From the NCBI GenBank assembly GCA_963712745.1, contig CAVQJC010000020.1, positions 192,001-256,000 on the forward strand: a stretch of 64,000 nucleotides of DNA, given 5' to 3'. Made by a program: the position numbers and the translations under genes. Below, one piece after another: positions 26,219-37,484 of this stretch. Numbering within the stretch: the first letter of the stretch is position 1; each line of letters starts with the position of its first letter. This DNA is from an uncultured Chloroflexia bacterium. Lineage in GTDB: Bacteria; Chloroflexota; Limnocylindria; Limnocylindrales; CSP1-4. Under the pieces are notes generated by a model. It saw only the letters and a program-made list of their open reading frames with translations. It searched no databases and was not told where the DNA came from.

Positions 26219-27268
26219 GTGACCGAGAGCGTGACAGAGGAACCGAAGACCGCAGGGATGACGGAGGAGGCCGGCGGGCAGGAGCCGGCTGACACGCGAC
26301 CGCCCCGGGGCATGAACCCCAGCCTCCCGCCGGACGTGAACCCCGAGCCGCTGCCGCTGGGCTTCGCGGACTTGTGGCGCATCGCACGCAAGACGTACCG
26401 CGCGGAGCGGCGCTACTACCTCAAGCTCGACCGGCATCGCAAGATGAACAGCAAGCGGCTGTCGAGCTCGGTCCTGCCGGCCTTGAAGCGGCCCATCTTC
26501 ATCATCGGCGCGGCCCGCTCGGGCACCACTTTCCTGGGCGACTGCCTCGGCCGTCTGCCGGAGGTGACCTATCACCACGAGCCGCCGGCCACCAAGGCCG
26601 CCGGCCGCTATGTCTACGAGGGCCTGTGGAGCTATCGCCGCTCGCGCTGGTTCTTCCGCATGGTCTACAGCTGGCTGGTGCGGGTCGAACGCGACGGGGA
26701 TCTGCGCTTCTCGGAGAAGACGCCCACCAACATCTTCCTCATCCCGTTCCTGGCCAAGGCCTTCCCCGACTCGCAGTTCGTCCACATCATCCGCGACGGC
26801 CGGGACGCGGCCAGCTCCCACATGCACAAGCCCTGGCTGCGGGCCGAGGACGCGTGGTCGGGAGAGCGCGAGCCCGGCGGCTACCTGCACGGGCCCTGGC
26901 CCAGCTTCTGGGTCGAGCCGGACCGTCGCGACGACTTCCTGAGCACGAGTGACGCGCGCCGCATGGCCTGGGCCTGGCGCCGCTACACCGAGGTCGGCCT
27001 GCGCGACGGGCCGGCATTGGGGGCCGAGCGTTATCACGAGCTGCGCTACGAGGACCTCGTGCGCCGGCCTATCGACGAGGCCGAGCGCATGCTCGACTTC
27101 CTCGACATCAGGCGCAGGACATCGCGCGATGCGTTCGTCTCCGCCACGATGCGCGCGGACAATTCCTCGGTGGGCACGTGGCGCAACACCTTCTTCCCGT
27201 CGGAGATGGCCGAGATCGACGCGGAGGCCGGCGACCTGTTGCGTCGGCTCGGCTACGTCGACGACTGA
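26219..27268 (+). CDS. PAPS-dependent sulfotransferase 2
   Basis: Motifs IIGAARSGTT, EKTP, IIRDGRD...S, LRYEDL, SVGTWR. Start uncertain (GTG 26219 or ATG 26258). Confidence 0.88.
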   Translation: MTESVTEEPKTAGMTEEAGGQEPADTRPPRGMNPSLPPDVNPEPLPLGFADLWRIARKTYRAERRYYLKLDRHRKMNSKRLSSSVLPALKRPIFIIGAARSGTTFLGDCLGRLPEVTYHHEPPATKAAGRYVYEGLWSYRRSRWFFRMVYSWLVRVERDGDLRFSEKTPTNIFLIPFLAKAFPDSQFVHIIRDGRDAASSHMHKPWLRAEDAWSGEREPGGYLHGPWPSFWVEPDRRDDFLSTSDARRMAWAWRRYTEVGLRDGPALGAERYHELRYEDLVRRPIDEAERMLDFLDIRRRTSRDAFVSATMRADNSSVGTWRNTFFPSEMAEIDAEAGDLLRRLGYVDD

Positions 27269-27287
27269 CCCGAGCCAGGCGCACACG

Positions 27288-28388
27288 ATGGCCGTCGAGC
27301 TGCGTGACCTGGGCTTCCTCCACCTGGGCCGCGAGGAGAGCGGCGTGCGGCGCTACGGCCAGCTCATCGCCGACGAGGCTCGCACCCGCGCGGGCCTGAC
27401 CGTCACCGAGGTCGAGGCCGGTCGCGTCGACCAGTCCTCCGAACAGCTCGCCGCGGTAGCCGATGGCCTGGCCGACTGCGACGTGGCGCTGATGCAGTGG
27501 AACCGTCGCGGCTGGGGCAAGAACGGCCGCGCACTGCCCCGCCTGATGCGGTTCCGCCGGGCCTACAAGGGCCTGCTGGTGGTGACCATGCACGATGTCT
27601 TCGACCGTACCGGCCTCCGCCAGCGGTATCTGCAGCCCGATGCCTGGAGCCTGCGCTGGCTGGGGCGCAACGCAGATCGCATCGTGGTTCACTCCCAGAT
27701 CGAGGTCGAACGACTGCGGGGGATCGTCCCGGTCGAGAAGATGCGCGTCATCCCTCACTTCGTCGAGCGTCGCGAGCTTTCGCTGACCCCGGCTCAGGCT
27801 CGAGCCAGGCTGGGCCTCGGTGACCGCCGGCTGGTCACGCTGCTGGGTTTCGTCTACGGACGGAAGGGCCACCGCTACGCGGTCGAGGCGGTGCCCTACA
27901 TGCCCGACGACGCGGTGATGGTGTACGCGGGGGGACCGGTCGAAGGACGCACGTTCGTCCACGACCTCGCCCTCGACAAAGCCCAGGAGCTGCAGCTCGG
28001 TGACCGCTTCCGCATCACCGGCTACCTCAGCGAGGACGAGTTGGAGACCTGGATCGCCGCCACCCACCTGGCCATCCTGCCCTTCACCGACCTCTCGGCC
28101 TCGGGCTCGATGTCGTCCTGGATCTCCGCCGGCAAGCCCATGCTCGTCTCGGACCTGCCGGGCACGCGCGAGTACGCGCGCTGGGCGCCGGGTGCCCTCC
28201 ACTTCTTCGGGCCCTCCGAGCCGTGGCCGCTGGGCGCGGCCATCAGCGAGCTTCTGGCCCGACCGCTGCCCGACCCCGACCCGGGCGTGCGACAGCTGGC
28301 CCGCGAGTTGAGCATGGAGAACACGGTCGATCGCTACCTCGCTGTCGCGCGCGAGGCGCTCGCATCCCGCGGGGCTGACGGGGGCTGA
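27288..28388 (+). CDS. GT-B (GT4-like) glycosyltransferase 2
   Basis: Clear paralog of 23916..25001 (GFLH.GRE.SG.RRYG, TMHDVF, IPHFVE, LGF...RKG, SASGS). Confidence 0.85.
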   Translation: MAVELRDLGFLHLGREESGVRRYGQLIADEARTRAGLTVTEVEAGRVDQSSEQLAAVADGLADCDVALMQWNRRGWGKNGRALPRLMRFRRAYKGLLVVTMHDVFDRTGLRQRYLQPDAWSLRWLGRNADRIVVHSQIEVERLRGIVPVEKMRVIPHFVERRELSLTPAQARARLGLGDRRLVTLLGFVYGRKGHRYAVEAVPYMPDDAVMVYAGGPVEGRTFVHDLALDKAQELQLGDRFRITGYLSEDELETWIAATHLAILPFTDLSASGSMSSWISAGKPMLVSDLPGTREYARWAPGALHFFGPSEPWPLGAAISELLARPLPDPDPGVRQLARELSMENTVDRYLAVAREALASRGADGG

Positions 28389-28451
28389 CGGGATTCCGCC
28401 GGCCAGCCAGGGCCGGCGCCGACCCGGCCCGGGACGGAGGAGCCGGGCGGC

Positions 28452-29636
28452 CTACTTGATGCCGGCGTCGTCCCTGAGCTGCGCCGCCTTGTCGGTGCGC
28501 TCCCAGGGCAGGTCCAGGTCTTCGCGCCCGAAGTGGCCGTAGGCCGCAGTCTGGCGGTAGATCGGCTGCCACAGGTCGAGGGCATTGATGATGCCTGCTG
28601 GACGGAGGTCGAAGTGCTGTTCCACCAGCTTCTGGATCTCGGCGTCGGCGATGGCGCCGGTGCCGAACGACTCGACCGAGATGCTGACTGGTTCGGCGAT
28701 CCCGATACCGTAGGCCAGCTCCACCTCGAAGCGGTCGGCCAGGCCGGCTGCGACAACGTTCTTGGCCACCCAGCGGGCCGCGTACGCTGCCGAGCGGTCG
28801 ACCTTCGTCGGATCCTTGCCGCTGAAGGCCCCGCCGCCGTGCCGAGCCATCCCGCCGTATGTGTCCACGATGATCTTGCGGCCTGTGAGCCCGGCGTCGC
28901 CCATGGGCCCGCCCAGTTCGAACCAGCCAGTGGGATTGACGTGCATGATCGGATCCTGAGGGCGTAGTCCAGGCTCGATGCTGGGCAGGATCACCGTCTC
29001 CATGACGTCGGCCCGCAACTGCTCGATGCGGATATCGGGATCGTGCTGGGTTGAGACAACGACGGTGCCCACCCGCTTGGGCTGACCGTCCTCGTATTCG
29101 ACGGTGACCTGGGTCTTGCCGTCCGGTCGCAGATAGTGAAGCTGACCGCTCTTGCGCACCTCGGCGAGGCGGCGGGACATGCGGTGGGCGAGGGCGATGG
29201 GCAGGGGCATGAGCTCCGGCGTCTCGCGGCAGGCGAAGCCGAACATCATGCCTTGGTCGCCTGCCCCCAACTCCTGGCCGTCGACACCCATGGCGATGTC
29301 CGGCGATTGCTCCTTGATCGAGACGAGCGTGCCGCAGGTCAGGTAGTCGAAGCCATACTCGGCCTTGGTGTAGCCGATATCACGAACCGTGTCCCGTACG
29401 ATCGCCTGGAAGTCGACATAACCCTGGGTCGAGATCTCGCCCAGGACCATCACCAGCCCGGTAGTGGTCGCGGTCTCACAGGCGACCCGCGGCTCTGGGT
29501 ACCGGTGGGCGGCGGCGTCGGTGATGATGGCATCAAGGATGGCGTCCGAGATCTGGTCGCACATCTTGTCGGGGTGGCCCTCGGTGACCGACTCGGAAGT
29601 GAAGAGATACGGGCCCGAGTCGGTGATCCTGGTCAT
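28452..29636 (-). CDS. metK: S-adenosylmethionine synthetase
   Basis: Motifs [57 protein letters not shown]. Confidence 0.98.
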
Positions 29637-29799
29637 GAAACAGCGCTCTCCTGTGATGGGGTCCGCGAAGGTTAGCACGCGAATCAGGCTCTCTCCCGCC
29701 CCGGGCCAAGCGACCCGGTGGCCTGTGCCCCGCGGCAGGCCACTTCGGGACCGATGGCCGTGCCCAAGACCGAAAACGCGCGCGCATGCTGCAACCCAT

Positions 29800-30528
29800 A
29801 TGGTCAACCTTCCCACCTCGATCGACCCCAAGCGCGCGGCGGAATACCTTGCCGACTGGGGTTTCCTCGCCGACCCCGACCTGCCCGACCGGCCGGGGCC
29901 AGCCTTCCTGCTCGTGGCCATCCGGGCCAAGCCGACCCTGCGCCACTACGACCCTGAACTGGTCGAGTACTGGGTCACTGGCGCGCGCGGCTTCGGCGTG
30001 CGCGAGGCCATCACCTACGCCAGCCGGATGCCGCGCGAGGCGGAGTTCTCCTGGGGCCGGATCACGGTCTCCGATCGCAAGGGCGTGGCCAACAGCTACG
30101 TCTCCTTCGGCGGCACCATGCGCGCCGAGCGCATCGACGGCGAGGTCATCTGCGTCTTCGAATCGCCGGCGCCGCTGCTGCGCCGTGGCGGTCACTCACA
30201 GGGCTGGGACACCGGCTCGTACAGCGTGGGCGGGTTCTTTGGGCGCTTCCGGGCCGCTGCTGGCTACCAGCACGAGTTCGAGACGCTGGCCGCCAAGGTC
30301 GACCCGGTGACACGTTACTCGGCCTTCGTCCACGAGCTGATGGCGCGCTACCGCTCGAGCGAGTACCTGCGTGACCATTACCCCAAGCTGTGGACCATCA
30401 TGGTCGGCGAGGAGAGGCGCCTGAAGCGCGACCATCCTGTGGCCTGGGCCGAGGGCGCGGAGTTGCTCGAGTCGACCAAGCGCGTGGCCGGTGGGGGCAG
30501 CATGGCCAGGGTCTTGCGACCGTTCTGA
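29800..30528 (+). CDS. Hypothetical protein
   Basis: Long ORF with coding-like, GC3-rich codon usage from ATG 29800; no recognised motif. Confidence 0.7.
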
Positions 30529-30836
30529 CCGACCAGTGCCGCGGGTAGGCTACCCCTGCATGTCGCTGCCAGGGACCATCCGACAGAACGTAACGACGAG
30601 CCTGAGCCTTGCGCGCGACCGCGTTAGGCGCTAACCCCGGCGGATGTTGGGGACGTGGTTGCCGCAGGCAGTCGTGCTGCTGATCGTGGGTGGCATCATC
30701 CCCGGCGTGCTCGTGGACGACCTCACGCGTGGCCGCGGCGTTCGGGCGGCGCCCGCCGCCACGCTGAGCGGTGGGAGTCAGAACGGCCGGCGTCTGTGCG
30801 ACACCGGCCATCCGCGACTCAAGCGGGACCGCTCGG

Positions 30837-32171
30837 TCAGGTGCCCTGCTTCCAGGAGTTCGTGTACTCGACCTGCTCGGGGGTCATGCCCTCGATAAAG
30901 ATGCCGCGGGCCTCCAGCTTGAGCCGGGCGATCTGCGCATCGAGGTCCGCGGGCACCACGAGCACCTCGTTGGCCAGCGATTCGTGGTTGCGGGCCACGT
31001 ACTCGGCCGAGAGCGCCTGCCCCGCGAAGCTCATGTCCATGACCGCGGCCGGATGACCCTCGGCCGCACCAAGGTTGACCAGCCGGCCCTCAGCCAGCAG
31101 GTACAGCTTCTTCTCGCCGAGGTCGTACTCCCTGACGCTCTCGCGGACCTCCCGCACGTGTCCCTCGGCCAGCCGCTCGAGCGCGGCCAGCTCGAGCTCG
31201 GCGTCGAAGTGCCCGGAGTTGGCCAGCACGGCGCCGTCGGACATCACGCGGAAGTGCTCCTCGCGGAAGACGTTGAGGTTACCCGTGGCGGTGACGAAGA
31301 TCTCGCCCCACTGGGCCGACTCGCCCGCGGTCATCACCTGGTGGCCGTCCATCAGGGCCTCGATGGCGCGTACCGGATCGACTTCGACCACGGTCACTAG
31401 GGCACCCATGCCGTTGAGGCGATTGGCGATGCCGCGACCGACCCAGCCGTAGCCAGCTACGACGCAGCGGCGCCCGGCCAGAAGGTAGTTGGTCGCGCGC
31501 AGGATGCCATCGACGGTCGACTGGCCCGTGCCGTAGCGGTTATCGAAGAGGTGCTTCGTCTGAGCCTCGTTGACGGCCACGACCGGGAAGGCCAAGGCGC
31601 CATCGGCGGCCATGGCCTTGAGGCGGATGACACCGGTGGTCGTCTCCTCGGTCCCGGCAAGGACCTCGGACAGCTGTCCCGGCCGCTCCTTGTGGAGCAG
31701 CGCCACGAGGTCGCAACCGTCGTCCATGGTGATGTGCGGATGGGTGTCCGCGGCCGCGTTGAGGTGCTGGTAGTAGGTCTCATTGTCTTCGCCACGGATG
31801 GCATAGCAGCTGATGCCGTACTCCGCCACCAGGGCGGCTGCCACGTCGTCCTTCGTGGACAACGGGTTGGAGGCCACGAGCGTGACCTCGGCGCCGCCGG
31901 CCTTGAGCGTGCGCATGAGGTTGGCGGTCTCGGTGGTGACGTGCAGGCAGGCGCCGATACGCAGGCCGGCCAGCGGCTGCTCTCGCTCGAAGCGCTCGCG
32001 GATGAGACGGAGGACCGGCATCTCCCGCTCGGCCCACTCGATACGGCGAACACCTTCGTCCACGAGACCGAGGTCGGCGACATCGTGGGGCGGATAGGAC
32101 GCGGTCTGGCCAGTCATGGCGTCACCGGAGGTGGTCTGCATCGGGCGGTCGGGAGCGGGGCGTTCGGTCAT
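30837..32171 (-). CDS. ahcY: Adenosylhomocysteinase
   Basis: Motifs [64 protein letters not shown] at 32171 (alternative start 32117). Confidence 0.97.
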
Positions 32172-33040
32172 CCATTCCTCCTGAAGTCGGAAACGAGGGC
32201 CCGGATGGGCCCGACGATGCTATCCCAGAGCGACGTTTCACGGTGGATGAGCCGCTCCTCGAACTCGGTGTGCGCGTGGTAGCCCAGGGCCTCGTAGGCG
32301 GCGATCGCCGGGGGGTTGTCGGCGCGCACGTTGAGCACGACGGTCTCACACGTGCGCAGCAGGTCCGCAGTGACCGCGCTGGTGACGACCTTGGCCAGGC
32401 CCTGGCCACGGTACTCACGGTGCGTGTAGACGTTACCCACCGCGGCGACGCCCCACTGCGGGCTGATGACATGCGTGCCGGCGGCGGCCAACAGGCGGGT
32501 CCCTCGCCGCACGCCGTAGTAGAGGCCCGCGGCCACGGCCTCCTGCGGCAGGTGGGCCGTGATGCCCAGCCCATAGAGCCGGTTGAGGTGCTGCGTGTCG
32601 GCCTGGTCCAGACGAACGGCATCGCCGACGAAGGGCTTGAACGAGGCACGGTCGACGGCCATGCGCACCATCGGCGCCGGAGCGTCGGCGCGGTAGTGGT
32701 CGCGGACCGCGGACACCACCTCCGCCCTGGCCCCGAGGTAGGCGATGCGTGGACGGACGACGTCGCGCAGGATGGCGCTGACCCCAGCCGGCTCGCCCAT
32801 GGCGAACACCGGCTGCGGCGAGATGCCCTTGTACTCCATGACCACGGCCACCGGGGTGCGCTCGTGGAAGGCGATGCCGAAGTGGGTGCGGTCGAACTCG
32901 CGGTCGTCGGTATCGGCGATGGCGTAGGCAGCGAAGATGCGGTCCTGCTCCAGGAACTGGTGGAGCAGCTCACGGTCGCGCGTCGTGCGGACCTCGAGGT
33001 GGCGCCCGGCAGCCACGCCATCCCGGGTGACGGTGGCCAT
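32168..33040 (-). CDS. GNAT (FR47-like) N-acetyltransferase
   Basis: Motifs [30 protein letters not shown]. The ATG at 33040 overlaps the upstream TGA, and the stop overlaps the ahcY start. Confidence 0.85.
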
Positions 33041-34429
33041 CAGCGGGTCTCGCCGGGGTCGGCGGCGCCGTCCTCGGTGACGAGCAGGCCGATGTGTTCG
33101 AGCGGCACCACGTCCGCGGCCGGCACCAGTGCGTCCGCAGCCCGGACGGGCACATCCGCCAGGATAGGCGGTCAGCTCGCGGGCCGGCCGCAGCTCGACG
33201 GGGATGGCACGCCCATCGGGCGTGGACCGATCGCGGGTGGCGGCGAGACCGCTGACCATGACCAGCGGGCGCTCCATGCCAGGTCCACGCGATGCCGCGG
33301 CGGCCCCGGCGATGAGTCGGCTGCCGAGCAGTGCGCCGACGTCGCCGTTGGCAGCGATCCACTCGGCCGCGATCAGCACCGCGTCGACCGGCTCAGCATC
33401 GAATAGCCAGCCGACCGCAGCGTCGGGGATGATGCGGTGCTCGATACCGGCCTGCCGCAACTCCCAGCTGACCAGCCGCGCGCCGTCCATGAAGGGCCGG
33501 CCCTCGGTCACGAAGATGCGCAGCTCGCGGCCCGCGTCGCGCAGCGCTGACAGCGCCGCGAGTCCGGTGCCGACCAGGCCGCCGGCCAGCGCTCCCTGGC
33601 TGCCGTGGACGAGGATGGTCGCGGGGCGATCGGATGGCTGGGGCAGCGCTTGCGCGATGCCCGAGGCGATGGCGGCCTGCCAGCGCCCGATGTCCTCGGC
33701 GATGGCGTCTGCCTCCGCACGCAGCGACTGAGCCAATTCGACGCCGGGAACCGTCTCGTCGAGCTGGGCGACGGCTGCACGCATCCGTGCCATCGACCAA
33801 GCGGGCAGCCGGGCCGATGGGCGCGCCTCGACCAGTGCACGCTCGGTGCGCTGCAGCTCGATCTGGCGCTGCTCGGGCGGCTGCTCCGCACGCTCAAGGG
33901 CGGTCAGTGCCAGGCCGTAGGCGGCGACCTGGGCCATGAGCGGCCCGCCGCGGGCCACGCCCAGGCGCAGGTAGTAGGCGACGTCGCTTCCCCGCCTGGC
34001 CGAGACCTCCACCACCGATTCGGGGATGCTGCGCTGGTCAAGCAGCACCAGCTCGTCGACGGTCAGCCGGTAGGCACTGCGGAAGGCGTCCTCGGCGGCC
34101 GGCGCGGCGATGCTGACCACGGGAGCGCTGCTGCGGCCGGAGCGCGTGAACTCGGACGTGCGTCCCGGCGGCGGCTGGTCGAGCCCGAGCAGCTCGCTGG
34201 CGATGCTGCTGGAAGTGCGGCCGACCACGTCGGCCATGCCGGCGACCTGCCCCACGGCGGTGACCGCCTGCTTCCCGAACTGGAAGAAGAAGGCTCGCCG
34301 GGCGGGGTCGTGCATCCGCGGGCCCGGCTCACCGCTGGCGTCCGGGCTGGGGGCATGCGGCACTGCGGGCTCGTCCTGCGATGCACTGGGACCGTCATCC
34401 GGGACAGGCACCGGCGCAGCCTCGGCCAT
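33040..34429 (-). CDS. Degenerate methylthioribose-1-phosphate isomerase (MtnA)/eIF2B-alpha-like protein (frameshift near 33162)
   Basis: Motifs LLDQR.IP, EGRP..DGARL.SWEL, IAANGD, IPVELRP. After the frameshift the protein ends VPAADVVP..HIGLLVTEDG. Catalytic motifs are altered. Start uncertain (34429, 34492 or 34504). Confidence 0.75.
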
Positions 34430-34457
34430 CTCGGCGGAGCCCTGCGGGTCGGGACCC

Positions 34458-34979
34458 TCAGTACCCGATGACGCTGTTGATCCGGTAGCCATCGAGGCGG
34501 TCACGGCCTTTGAGGAAGCCGAGCTCGACCAGGAACGAGAGGCCCACGATGTCGCCCTTGAGCTGCTTCACCAGCTCGATCGTGCCCAGGACCGTGCCGC
34601 CGGTGGCGAGCAGGTCATCGACGATGAGCACGCGCTGGCCGGGCCGGATGGCGTCGCGGTGCACCTCGAGCGTGTTCGTACCGTATTCAAGCTCGTACTC
34701 GACACTGATGGTCTCTGCCGGCAGCTTGCCCAGCTTACGGACCGGCACGAAGCCGGCTCCCAGGTGCAAGGCCATCGGCGCGCTGAAGATGAAGCCGCGC
34801 GATTCCATGCCCACCACGATATCGATCTGCTCGCCCTTGAACGGCTCGTTCATGAGCTCGATGGCCTCGCGGAAGGCCTCGGGGTCGTTGAGCAGCGTGG
34901 TGATGTCGTAGAAGAGGATCCCGGGCTTCGGGAAGTCGGGGACTTCGCGGATCTGGGCCCGAAGCGAGTCGGCGGACAC
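34458..34979 (-). CDS. apt: Adenine phosphoribosyltransferase
   Basis: Motifs [42 protein letters not shown]. Confidence 0.97.
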
Positions 34980-35078
34980 GGCAGGATGCTCCCGTCATCA
35001 AGGTCTGTAGTGGGTGTTCTGGAGTCTAGCGCACGATGTAGCCCGCTCCACGCTGTTCAGGAAGGCGTCCAGGGCGCC

Positions 35079-36182
35079 TCAGCCGTCCGGCCGGTCGCTC
35101 ATGGGCGCCGCCGCTCGCCTCATGCCGTGCCGCCACGATCTCGGCCATGATGGCCAGTGCAGTCTCCGCCGGGTCGCGGCCCCCCAGGTCCAGCCCGATA
35201 GGTCCGCGCAGGCGCGCCACCTGCTCGGTCGAGCCCGGCTGCGTGCAACCGCTCGCGCCTTGCCCGCTGTGTCTTGCGGCTGCCGATAGCGCCGACGTAG
35301 CGGCACTCGCGACGCAGGGCTTCGGTGATGGCCGGATCGTCGAACTTGGGATCGTGCGAGAGCACGGCCACTGCGTCGCCGGGGCCCAGCTCGATCTCGT
35401 CGGCGACCTCGTCGGGCCAGCCGATGACCAATCGGTCGACGCCCGGGAAACGCTCAGGCCTGGCGAAGGCGGGGCGGCCGTCGATGACCACGGTCTCGTA
35501 GTCGAGCTCGCGTGCGATGCGTACGAGCATCACCGCCACCTCCACCGCGCCGACCATGACGATGCGTGGCCGCACCTCGAACGCCTCCAGGAAGAGCTGG
35601 CGACCGGCCAGTTCGACGACCTCCGAGACACCTCGTGAGAGCGCCGTGCGCGCCGACTCGACCAGGGCCGCATCGGAGGCGGCGTCACCCAGCGAGCCCT
35701 CCAGCCGGCCGTCCTCGTGCACCACGAGCGAGACTTCCGGCGCTGCCGCCGGTCCCAGGGCGGAGGCCCCGATGGACGTGCGCTGGCGAGCCGTCGGGCA
35801 GGGCGGTGACCACCACTCGCCCGGCGTGGCGGTCGTGTGCCGTGGCCCGGACCGCCTCGAGCGCAGCTGCTGGGACCAGCGGCTGCACCAGCACGTCGAT
35901 GGTGCCGCCACAGGCGAGGCCGACGTCCCAGGCGTCGTCGTCGCTGATGCCGAAGCGGACGACCCGCTGCTCTCCCGTTGAGGCAGCTTTCGCCATGTGC
36001 TCCGCCGTGGCGCCCTCGACGCAACCACCACTTACCGAGCCGCTGATGCGGCCGTCCGGGGCCCACAGCATGGTCGACCCTTCACGGCGCGGCGAGGAGC
36101 CGAAGGTGCGGACGACGACGGCCCGCGAGATGTCGACCCCGTCTTGGGCCCAGGCCTCCAGGGTGCCCAGCAGCTCCCTCAT
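35079..36182 (-). CDS. xdhC: XdhC/CoxI-CoxF family molybdo-hydroxylase maturation factor (several frameshifts)
   Basis: Motifs GSSPR..G, GSVSGGCVE, GLACGGTIDV; SHDPKFD, YVGAIGSRK; GPIGLDLG...PAETALAI.AEI, spread across three frames. Confidence 0.85.
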
Positions 36183-37484
36183 GCCACGACCCCCACCCGC
36201 GGCACCACCGGGATGGGCGCCGCACGATGCACCCGCGGACGCCCGTTGCGATCGGGTCGCCGGCTGCGGTGGCTGGCCATCTCCGCCAGCAGCTCGCCCA
36301 GGCGGTAGAGCGAAGCCAGGTCGTTCACGGCCACGAGGTCGTCGATGAAGGGATAGGCCGCGGCCATGCCGCCTGCGAGCGGCTGGTAGTACTCGCTACC
36401 GGCCAGCGGGTCGAGCCAGATGAGTCGATGACAGCTGCGCTGGAGGCGCGCCATCTCGTGCCGCACCAGGGCCGGGTCACCGCGGTCCCAGCCGTCGGAG
36501 ACGATGATGACGACACCGCTCGAGCGCAGCGTGCGGCGGGCCCAGTCGCGGTTGAACTGCCGGAGCGAGTCCCCGATACGGGTGCCGCCAGACCAGTCGG
36601 AGACCGCGGCCGAGACATGTTCCAGCCCGGCGTCGGGATCGCGACCGGAGAGCTCGTGGGTGACCCGTGAGAGGTGGGTGCCGAACACGAAGGCTTCCGT
36701 TCGCACCGCCGACATCCGGTGCAGGGCCATGGCGAAGCGGATGAGCAGGCGGGAATGTCGCTCCATGGAGCCGGTGATGTCGCAGATGACCGTGATCGAG
36801 CGTGGGCGCATGGCCGGACGCGCCAGAGCCACTCCATGAGGTCGCCGCCGTGCTGCAGGTTGGCCCGGAACATCTGCCGCGCCGCCACCAGGCGTCCGTG
36901 GCGGTGAAGCTCCTGCCGTCGCGCCCGGCGCATCTCCAGCCGCGGCCGCACCTGGTCCACCAGCCGCTCGGCGTCGCGCAGCTCGTCAGGGCTCATGCGG
37001 TCGAACGGCTTGTGCAGGAGGCGCTCACGCTCGCTCCATGACTCGACTCACCGGTCTCGTCGGCCAGATCGCCCCCTCCGCGTCCGCGCCGCCCTCGTCA
37101 GTATCACGCCCCCGCGACCTGCCCCAGGTCCTCCCCGCCCTCACCGGCGATCCGGGCCAGCTGCTCCTGGTCCCCTGCCCCACCCTCGACGTCGATCTCC
37201 AGGTCCAGCGGCTCGATGGCCAGCTCGTAGCGCTGCCAGAAGCGCGCGAAGACCTCGTCGTAGACCGGCACCTCGTCGCGCCGGCGCACGAAGATGGCCG
37301 CGCCGGCCGCACGTACCTGCTCGCGGTCGCCGATGTCGACGAGCGTCAATGCTCGCGAGTAGTCGATGGCGGCACCGATGTCGGTGGTGATGCCGGCGGC
37401 GCGCAGGGCGCGCGTGAACAGGAGCGCGTTCCAGAAGAACGCGCCGCCGGAGACGCCGGTCACGGACGGGCTCGGCTGGTTCAT
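36179..37484 (-). CDS. coxE: CoxE-like VWA domain protein (frameshifts near 37100 and 36830)
   Basis: N-terminal F.RALRAAG; VWA motifs CDITGSM, EAFVFGT.LSRVT, WSGGTRIG, IIVSDGWDRGD, LIWL.PL. Confidence 0.85.

Follow-up and report, generated by a model that had tools for sequence, protein, structure and literature searches.

A conserved MtnA-like candidate pseudo-isomerase in a SAM-cycle gene cluster of the Limnocylindria

What does a protein with the fold of methylthioribose-1-phosphate (MTR-1-P) isomerase, MtnA, do in a gene cluster of the S-adenosylmethionine (SAM) cycle when the residues of its active site have been replaced? This question is raised by an MtnA-like gene in a 64,000-nucleotide stretch of DNA from an uncultured Chloroflexia bacterium (contig CAVQJC010000020.1, positions 192,001 to 256,000; hereafter the window). 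Our analysis indicates that the gene is a conserved, family-restricted new variant of the PF01008 family, a lineage-specific paralog of MTR-1-P isomerase whose product is most likely a bacterial pseudo-isomerase. We favor, at about even odds (a probability of roughly 0.5), the reading that this product is a non-catalytic accessory protein of the cluster, probably ligand-responsive in the window's own family, with the GNAT acetyltransferase encoded just downstream as its likeliest partner. The parts of the gene on which the argument turns are these, in positions of the window:

33040-34504, minus strand: MtnA-like gene (putative pseudo-MtnA with RR helix); PF01008, 98.8 bits
34181-34312, minus strand: conserved RRAFF helix motif, residues 65-108, HDPARRAFFFQFGKQAVTAVGQVAGMADVVGR...LLGL, between two predicted-disordered stretches
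33043-34072, minus strand: MtnA/eIF2B-fold core, residues ~145 to the end, by alignment to Thermotoga maritima and Bacillus subtilis MtnA
33165: extra base in the window assembly, which shifts the frame and makes an apparent 778-aa MtnA-like/GNAT fusion

Aligned to both MtnA proteins, the window protein keeps the scaffold motifs LLDQR, TEGRPFMDGARLVSWEL and AANGD. Gly301 (nucleotides 33604-33602), within VHGSQG, stands at the position of the catalytic Cys of HCNxG. Where MtnA has the Asp-Arg of GADR, the window protein has Glu381-Trp382 in AAEW (Glu at 33364-33362), and the spacing from Gly301 to Glu381 equals that from Cys160 to Asp240 of B. subtilis MtnA, which we take to be the catalytic residues of that enzyme. 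ANKIGT has become GALLGS (in ANGDVGALLGS), with Ala391-Leu392 at the Asn-Lys position, VRGAP has become ARGGP, and Asp340 occupies the position of a Gln; Arg185 and Arg228 are kept. A first-pass annotation, made from the letters of the window, had quoted LLDQR, EGRP..GARL..WEL, IAANGD, HGSQG, AAEW, GALLGS and ARGGP and described both the catalytic Cys and the catalytic Asp as lost. All of these motifs are present and the Cys is indeed gone, but the acid is retained as Glu381.

The same replacements recur in a tally of 121 proteins, comprising the 120 best database homologs and the window protein. The catalytic Cys is Gly in every one of them, so that its loss is not a private decay of this genome, and the Ala of RGA is likewise Gly in 121/121. 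At the position of the catalytic Asp there is Glu in 109 proteins and Asp in 12, followed by Trp in place of Arg in 115. The Asn of ANK is Ala in 104/121 and the Lys is replaced by Leu in 68 and by Val in 48, while the Gln of RPxxQG is Asp in 100 and Glu in 21. The two arginines that would hold the 1-phosphate are kept almost throughout (Arg185 in 120/121, Arg228 in 118/121). Though it has the PF01008 fold, the protein scores under every MtnA and R15P isomerase cut-off in NCBIfam: 160.9 bits against 279 for TIGR00512 and 174.5 against 271 for NF004326, both with a query that lacks the last ~40 residues owing to the frameshift, and 47.1 against 314.1 for TIGR00511, the model of ribose-1,5-bisphosphate (R15P) isomerase. 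The homolog database carries the JGI label 'methylthioribose-1-phosphate isomerase' for MtnA-like proteins of this kind, a label that would wrongly credit genomes with a step of methionine salvage.

For the roles of these positions we draw on R15P isomerase. In the sections consulted of the study of that enzyme, Arg22, Arg65, Gln166 and Lys215 hold the 1-phosphate, Asp204, Asn214 and Lys215 hold the sugar, and Cys135 and Asp204 are catalytic; the C135S protein is inactive and the C135A protein does not bind substrate (PMC5789824). Where the isomerase has its Cys, eIF2B-alpha has Ala in human and Gly in S. pombe (PMC5789824). A sugar phosphate occupies what was the ancestral catalytic site in human eIF2B-alpha, with Ala129, Glu198 and Asn208 among the residues that hold it (PMC8187479). 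The spacing 129-198-208 is that of residues 135-204-214 of R15P isomerase, and we therefore infer a Cys-to-Ala and an Asp-to-Glu change in eIF2B-alpha. Judged by its sequence, the pocket of the window's family, with a small residue for the Cys and Glu as the acid, is in the eIF2B-alpha state. Because Gly301 and Glu381 form such a pocket, isomerase activity of the window protein is unlikely. The first-pass annotation had likened the protein to the eIF2B regulatory subunits, and the likeness is closer than it knew, since, by these two sources, the Cys position of eIF2B-alpha is likewise taken by a small residue (Ala or Gly) and its acid is Glu198.

Is the gene intact and separate from its neighbor? 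As assembled, the MtnA-like frame has no stop of its own, and a single 778-aa open reading frame (ORF), 32168-34504, continues into the GNAT gene; the last 40 residues ahead of the GNAT ATG are rich in Arg and look out of frame. The +1 frame is open from 33171 and encodes a C-terminus, LADVPVRAADALVPAADVVPLEHIGLLVTEDG..., that relatives read in frame. We compared Logan contigs of four public runs (X1-X4) over 32900-33500. One base at 33165 is absent from the contigs of X1, X2 and X4, that is, from 3/3 runs covering the site (X3 has no cover there), so that the window's frameshift is either a private change or an error of the assembly. Read correctly, the gene stays in one frame from at most 34504 to ~33166 and continues in the +1 frame, from 33162 on, until the TGA at 33042-33040, which overlaps the GNAT ATG (33040-33038) as TGATG. 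Its start is uncertain among GTG 34504, ATG 34492 and ATG 34430. In relatives we find one uninterrupted MtnA-like gene of about 455-530 aa. So read, the MtnA-like gene is separate from the GNAT gene and translationally coupled to it. The separate gene of the first-pass annotation is thus missing from the sequence as assembled and appears once the base at 33165 is removed. Of the two overlaps that it reported, ATGA (32171-32168, the GNAT stop overlapping the ahcY start) is present as assembled, and TGATG is present only in a frame other than that of the assembled MtnA-like ORF.

Broken frames occur elsewhere in these assemblies. An XdhC/CoxI-type gene upstream in the window (35120-36182, minus strand) is split between an ORF at 35685-36182 with the XdhC_CoxI N-terminal domain and an overlapping ORF at 35120-36031 with a partial XdhC_CoxI and an XdhC_C domain, which looks like another assembly frameshift. 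In a congener (genome G011, locus L009), an 899-aa frame is open from the MtnA-like gene into the GNAT. At loci L021, L022, L025, L026 and L005, MtnA-like, GNAT or apt genes are in pieces, for which assembly indel errors are the simplest explanation.

The MtnA-like gene is under purifying selection. Across seven pairs of loci (Nei-Gojobori method), the dN/dS ratio of its core is 0.15-0.37, far from 1, with 0.11-0.32 for the GNAT, 0.08-0.14 for apt and 0.07-0.15 for ahcY. The gene is present in 24/24 sampled genomes of the genus. In 22 of these it has apt upstream and the GNAT downstream, and in the other two the contig ends within the MtnA-like gene. The order apt, MtnA-like, GNAT recurs at 30/30 loci from many further genera of the family, with ahcY next in 28 of them. 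At locus L058 (genome G233), the ~500 nt downstream of the GNAT hold no match to ahcY. The window's own genome, which is 84.55% complete, has no PF01008 gene other than the MtnA-like gene. Some relatives do carry a canonical MtnA as well (HCNxG, GADR or GCDR, NGDTANKIGT), seen beside the MtnA-like form in L030, L031, L072 and L073. Second, shorter matches of canonical type are found in ~19 of 80 genomes of the family and in none of the other ~60. Loss of the Cys in orthologs, conservation of the locus and a ratio well below 1 were points on which the first-pass annotation had made its reading depend, and each speaks for a genuine, conserved and non-canonical protein; it had also asked whether a canonical mtnA exists elsewhere, as it does in some relatives.

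How far does the protein reach beyond its genus? The source names of its homologs point to Candidatus Limnocylindrales, Chloroflexota. We label the families of the class f1 to f5, where f1 is the window's own family and f2 its sister family (Candidatus Limnocylindrus, with genomes of ~1.1 Mb). With profile A1, the full-length form is found in 80/91 sampled f1 genomes and in 0/11 genomes of genus g6, where 5/5 loci read apt-GNAT-ahcY without an MtnA-like gene. Among 301 Chloroflexota genomes, including the unpublished G475, G379 and G548, full-length matches occur only in f1; all others start at profile position 104 at the least and are of the canonical type. In these samples the full-length form belongs to a single family of Limnocylindria. 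The GNAT gene is single-copy in 120/121 genomes of the class and occurs in all five families (a tally that includes the unpublished G123, G132, G103, G127, G141 and G147). The unpublished genomes enter only these two tallies. In f3 and f4 the GNAT directly follows apt, in the order apt-GNAT-ahcY-metK. In f5 the conserved GNAT is separated from apt by a HAD hydrolase gene and two additional GNAT genes (L084, 4887-8436, minus strand, genome G052); from this locus, the apt-GNAT junction seems to be a hot spot of gene insertion.

In f2 the same place holds a 406-aa ORF without a Pfam match, which overlaps the GNAT start and begins MAKRPASDRRSFLRS.... Only inspection of the locus revealed it as a homolog. 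Searches started from P0002 and from profile A1 missed it (0/16 and 0/12, respectively), and equally divergent forms elsewhere could be missed likewise. Set against A1, it gives an hhalign probability of 88.9 over 329 columns. It lies between apt and the GNAT in 5/5 f2 genomes and has 64 database homologs. Its AlphaFold2 (AF2) model, with a predicted local confidence (pLDDT) of 73.1, consists of an N-terminal helix, a disordered linker and a core, and the best structural matches of the core are MtnA (6a34_A, E 9e-15; 1t9k, TMt 0.70). The pocket motifs are all gone: APGP stands for RGGP, SGPGLG for HGxxG, AAGP for TEGRP and SDS for AEW. In one f2 genome (G025; L082, 4768-7193, plus strand), the GNAT is followed not by ahcY but by genes for a sugar-nucleotidyl transferase (PF00483) and a phosphoglucomutase/phosphomannomutase.

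A third, lone paralog is found in genome G080 (contig C24; L068, 2792-4219, plus strand). It has an ARRAFLRSF helix, a linker and a degenerate PF01008 core that keeps GADQ but lacks even the first Arg (VFGAP) and the His (LTLGSSG). It adjoins a class-III aminotransferase gene and an enolase-superfamily gene and lies opposite an ABC transporter gene. In a quick tree of canonical, f1-type and f2-type sequences and the third paralog, each type forms one group, with the order among them unresolved. The order thus has a recurring protein architecture, an RR helix with a dead MtnA fold, encoded immediately before the GNAT. By parsimony, its presence in f1 and f2 and its absence from g6 suggest that the MtnA-like gene was inserted in the f1/f2 ancestor, and so in the ancestor of the order, and would have been lost in the one genus, g6.

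The N-terminal part of the f1 protein, about 140 residues, is absent from MtnA and present in all full-length members. Its first segment is poorly conserved (dN/dS 0.3-1.2) and partly overlaps apt, and its third is a Pro/Ala-rich linker. Between them lies the helix segment, with the consensus (H/V)DxxRRAFFxxFG(K/R)QAVxxxGQVAGMAxxxxR...LLGL and a dN/dS of 0.06-0.26. The D, RR, A, FF and A of this segment are invariant in 71 sequences; it is found in ~95/121 proteins, the remainder being N-terminally truncated calls. An AlphaFold2 model of the ortholog P0003 (71 sequences; mean pLDDT 80.8) has residues 1-58 disordered, a helix at 60-90 (pLDDT 75-82), a second disordered stretch at 91-131 and a confident core at 138-475, and its best structural match is the MTR-1-P isomerase (M1Pi) of B. 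subtilis (2yvk_A, E 3e-27, TM 0.86). A search of the N-terminal segment against NCBIfam gave no family at E up to 10. In the window's own genome, an extended pattern of the RR motif matched only the MtnA-like gene and one out-of-context frame; the helix is therefore not a common module there. Language-model neighbors of the N-terminal part fall in clusters with TAT_signal, UCR_Fe-S_N and Fe_hyd_SSU, at scores of 0.76-0.85, under the mark of 0.9.

The rest of the cluster is on the minus strand, in the order given at first pass: apt, MtnA-like, GNAT and ahcY in a row, then metK about 1.2 kb further on.

34458-34979, minus strand: apt, adenine phosphoribosyltransferase, 173 aa; first gene of the cluster (NF002636, TIGR01090, PF00156)
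32168-33040, minus strand: GNAT acetyltransferase, 290 aa (PF08445, 44.2 bits, and PF00583, 39.7 bits, both above cut-off)
30837-32171, minus strand: ahcY, S-adenosylhomocysteine (SAH) hydrolase, 444 aa (TIGR00936, 601.8 bits against a cut-off of 497.6; PF05221, PF00670)
~28452-29636, minus strand: metK, SAM synthetase; final gene of the class-wide apt-GNAT-ahcY-metK cluster; three S-AdoMet_synt domains, start from the ORF translation

Three of these genes, apt, ahcY and metK, are unremarkable, with NCBIfam or Pfam scores well above cut-off (for apt, 235.7 bits against 125 with NF002636 and 227.4 against 185.85 with TIGR01090). The GNAT protein has a conserved N-terminal domain ahead of its C-terminal GNAT domain. 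It has 3545 homologs, the best 120 of which are 289-290 aa long, and its closest solved structure, 3ec4 (E 6e-9), is annotated only as 'putative'. The gap between ahcY and metK in the window (29637-30836) compares with only 15-40 nt at the f3, f4 and f5 loci L083, L084, L085 and L086 and with ~1.25 kb at the f4 locus L081. In the window it has a 354-aa plus-strand ORF (29464-30528) with no Pfam or NCBIfam match, which may be spurious or an insertion. An Rfam scan of 27000-37000 at E up to 1 found no riboswitch or other family, and a scan for promoters and terminators found nothing above the shuffled expectation.

What, then, might the protein do? We propose that it acts by binding and not by catalysis, as an accessory or adaptor of the cluster. 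Its likeliest partner would be the GNAT, because the overlap of start and stop between the two genes is conserved in f1 and f2, and the RR helix could be the docking element. The invariance of the new pocket residues in f1 suggests that the pocket still binds something. With its two Arg, its Glu and its new Asp, the half-kept f1 pocket probably still accommodates a metabolite that resembles or is related to a sugar phosphate, and the protein would then respond to its ligand. In f2 the pocket is fully lost while fold, helix and locus are kept, which argues that the function common to the order lies at the protein level, as a scaffold or adaptor. A more ambitious version, which we regard as doubtful though worth stating, would make the protein an independently arisen bacterial counterpart of the eIF2B regulatory subunits: a metabolite-responsive adaptor whose RR helix docks on the GNAT or on AhcY, so that acetylation or the hydrolysis of SAH follows how much of a ribose-phosphate or SAM-cycle metabolite is present, with the Limnocylindrus form as a pocketless scaffold end state.

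Several points weigh against an accessory role beside the GNAT. We infer both the partner and the ligand. The GNAT keeps its place where there is no MtnA-like protein, in g6 (all five loci), f3, f4 and f5, and any partnership must therefore be dispensable. The quick tree leaves it undecided whether the f1-type and f2-type proteins are sisters. The strong invariance of the f1 pocket would also fit a new catalytic activity, and the RR motif matches the consensus of twin-arginine translocation (Tat) signals, with TatC present in f1 relatives and in f2, so that the protein might leave the cytoplasm. A complex prediction for the MtnA-like protein (P0003 residues 56-481, A1) with the GNAT (A2) scored 0.01 against a mark of 0.32, which is evidence neither way.

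The first-pass annotation had seen in the gene a pseudo-enzyme that senses MTR-1-P or a related ligand and may control the GNAT, for example in the acetylation of AhcY. The broad part of this reading stands, in that the protein is conserved, non-canonical and no product of private decay. The specifics of MTR-1-P, GNAT control and AhcY find no support here, and we treat a sensor of the GNAT as a hypothesis. Against MTR-1-P as the ligand, the protein has lost a Lys that binds phosphate and an Asn that binds sugar, and its Gln has become Asp or Glu. The window's own genome has a nucleosidase for methylthioadenosine (MTA) and SAH (114 bits) and, at 84.55% completeness, no MTA phosphorylase above cut-off and no methylthioribose (MTR) kinase. 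A source of MTR-1-P is thus not evident, an argument weakened by the incompleteness of the genome. Against a sensor coupled to the GNAT, the GNAT is class-wide and has no MtnA-like gene beside it in most of the class, and the f2 homolog has no pocket.

Other explanations have to be set beside the accessory protein. Glu is the base in triose-phosphate isomerase, and the protein could still be catalytic, with Glu381 as sole base and a changed substrate, perhaps a ribose-derived product of SAH or adenosine breakdown, in a step that feeds or follows the GNAT. The invariance or near-invariance of the replacement residues (His-Gly, Glu/Asp-Trp, Asp/Glu340, Arg185, Arg228), the acid kept at the Asp position, the purifying selection and the ~60 of 80 f1 genomes with no second, canonical-type match are all consistent with such a re-tooled enzyme. 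However, the Asn-Lys ligands of sugar and phosphate are lost, and the window's own genome (84.55% complete) shows no MTA phosphorylase above cut-off and no MTR kinase. In R15P isomerase, according to the sections consulted, Cys-to-Ser already inactivates and Cys-to-Ala abolishes substrate binding (PMC5789824). The f2 homolog, at the same locus in all five genomes, is conserved without the pocket residues, and the function shared by the two families therefore cannot be catalysis by Glu381. We consider a re-tooled enzyme quite improbable. A decaying pseudogene, or a genuine 778-aa MtnA-GNAT fusion protein, is by far the least credible of the alternatives. The frame of the window does run on into the GNAT, as does the one in L009, but the extra base is missing from every run that covers it, the fused linker is Arg-rich and out of frame where the shifted frame yields the conserved C-terminus, and a dN/dS far below 1 is not that of a pseudogene. 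The splitting of other genes, XdhC in the window and those at L021, L022, L025 and L026, fits assembly indels.

Alternatively, the RRxF(F/L) motif could be a twin-arginine signal, cleaved or serving as a membrane anchor. The dead fold would then act beyond the cytoplasm, as a binding protein for instance, and its operon position would be a matter of history. RRAFF in f1 and RRSFLR or RRDFLR in f2 fit the Tat consensus. In f2 the motif is truly N-terminal, at residues 9-19, and a Pro/Ala-rich linker follows it. TatC is encoded in 60/60 f1 relatives and 5/5 f2 genomes, although it was not found in the window's own genome (84.55% complete), and the sub-threshold TAT_signal-type neighbors are a lead only. 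The segment itself looks less like a signal. The motif is followed by a median of 13 uncharged residues, compared with 19-31 in the clearest Tat-like signals of the genome, and Lys, Asp and Arg interrupt the supposed h-region of the f1 and f2 proteins and of the third paralog. Among called f1 proteins the median position of the motif is residue 43.5, and in the longest frame of the window it is residue 69 (the start codons being unverified); in the alignment most f1 orthologs have no start codon in the ~7 residues before it. Signal peptides are not usually better conserved than the remainder of a protein, as the motif segment is here. The N-terminal segment matches no NCBIfam family even at E up to 10, and the gene is translationally coupled to those of cytoplasmic enzymes. 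Export or tethering is on balance unlikely, and a cytoplasmic accessory protein of the cluster is the reading that we carry forward.

To our knowledge, the standard example of an enzyme that became a regulatory subunit is the eIF2B/MtnA fold, and this example has so far been known from eukaryotes only. The same transition appears to have occurred in bacteria, with the canonical enzyme, a half-kept pocket and no pocket at all preserved side by side. Because these forms center on one defined locus in a SAM-cycle cluster, they may offer a tractable system for the question of how pseudoenzymes acquire function. They also draw attention to an uncharacterized GNAT gene that belongs to the core of a whole class of Chloroflexota abundant in soil and freshwater. 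In the literature listings and abstracts consulted, there is no description of a Cys-less bacterial MtnA paralog or of the apt/MtnA-like/GNAT/ahcY cluster.

Among known systems, the MtnA enzymes themselves (M1Pi; B. subtilis 2YVK, T. maritima 1T9K) are the first comparison. The MtnA-like protein shares their two-domain fold (TM 0.86-0.90, normalized to the target), 25-28% identity, the scaffolds LLDQR, ExRPxxxGARLxxWEL and AANGD, and the two 1-phosphate Arg. Unlike them, it has Gly for Cys, Glu for Asp, Trp for Arg, no Asn-Lys and Asp or Glu for Gln, falls below the NCBIfam cut-offs and carries some 140 additional N-terminal residues with the RRAFF helix. R15P isomerase (PH0208, Tk-R15Pi) has the same fold and is the source of the residue roles used here; the MtnA-like protein differs from it in having no Cys and in its TIGR00511 score (47.1 against 314.1). 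In mycobacteria and other actinobacteria, cAMP- or amino-acid-binding domains are fused to GNAT protein acetyltransferases and set their activity. The likeness to such sensor-GNAT fusions, a ligand-binding module beside a GNAT, is one of idea only, since here there are two separate genes and the GNAT stands without the module in most of the class.

The remaining comparison is with eIF2B-alpha. The two proteins belong to one fold family and would share a small residue at the Cys, a Glu as the acid (the positional match is our own deduction from spacing) and the reuse of the ancestral site for binding. They differ in that the MtnA-like protein would be of independent bacterial origin, keeps the pair of 1-phosphate Arg, is without the Asn and has the RR helix, and in that its genomic partners are apt, GNAT and ahcY, not eIF2B gamma and epsilon or eIF2. 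Bacteria have, as far as we know, neither eIF2 nor the catalytic subunits of eIF2B. The MtnA-like protein may at most work as the eIF2B regulatory subunits do, by analogy and not as a member of their group.

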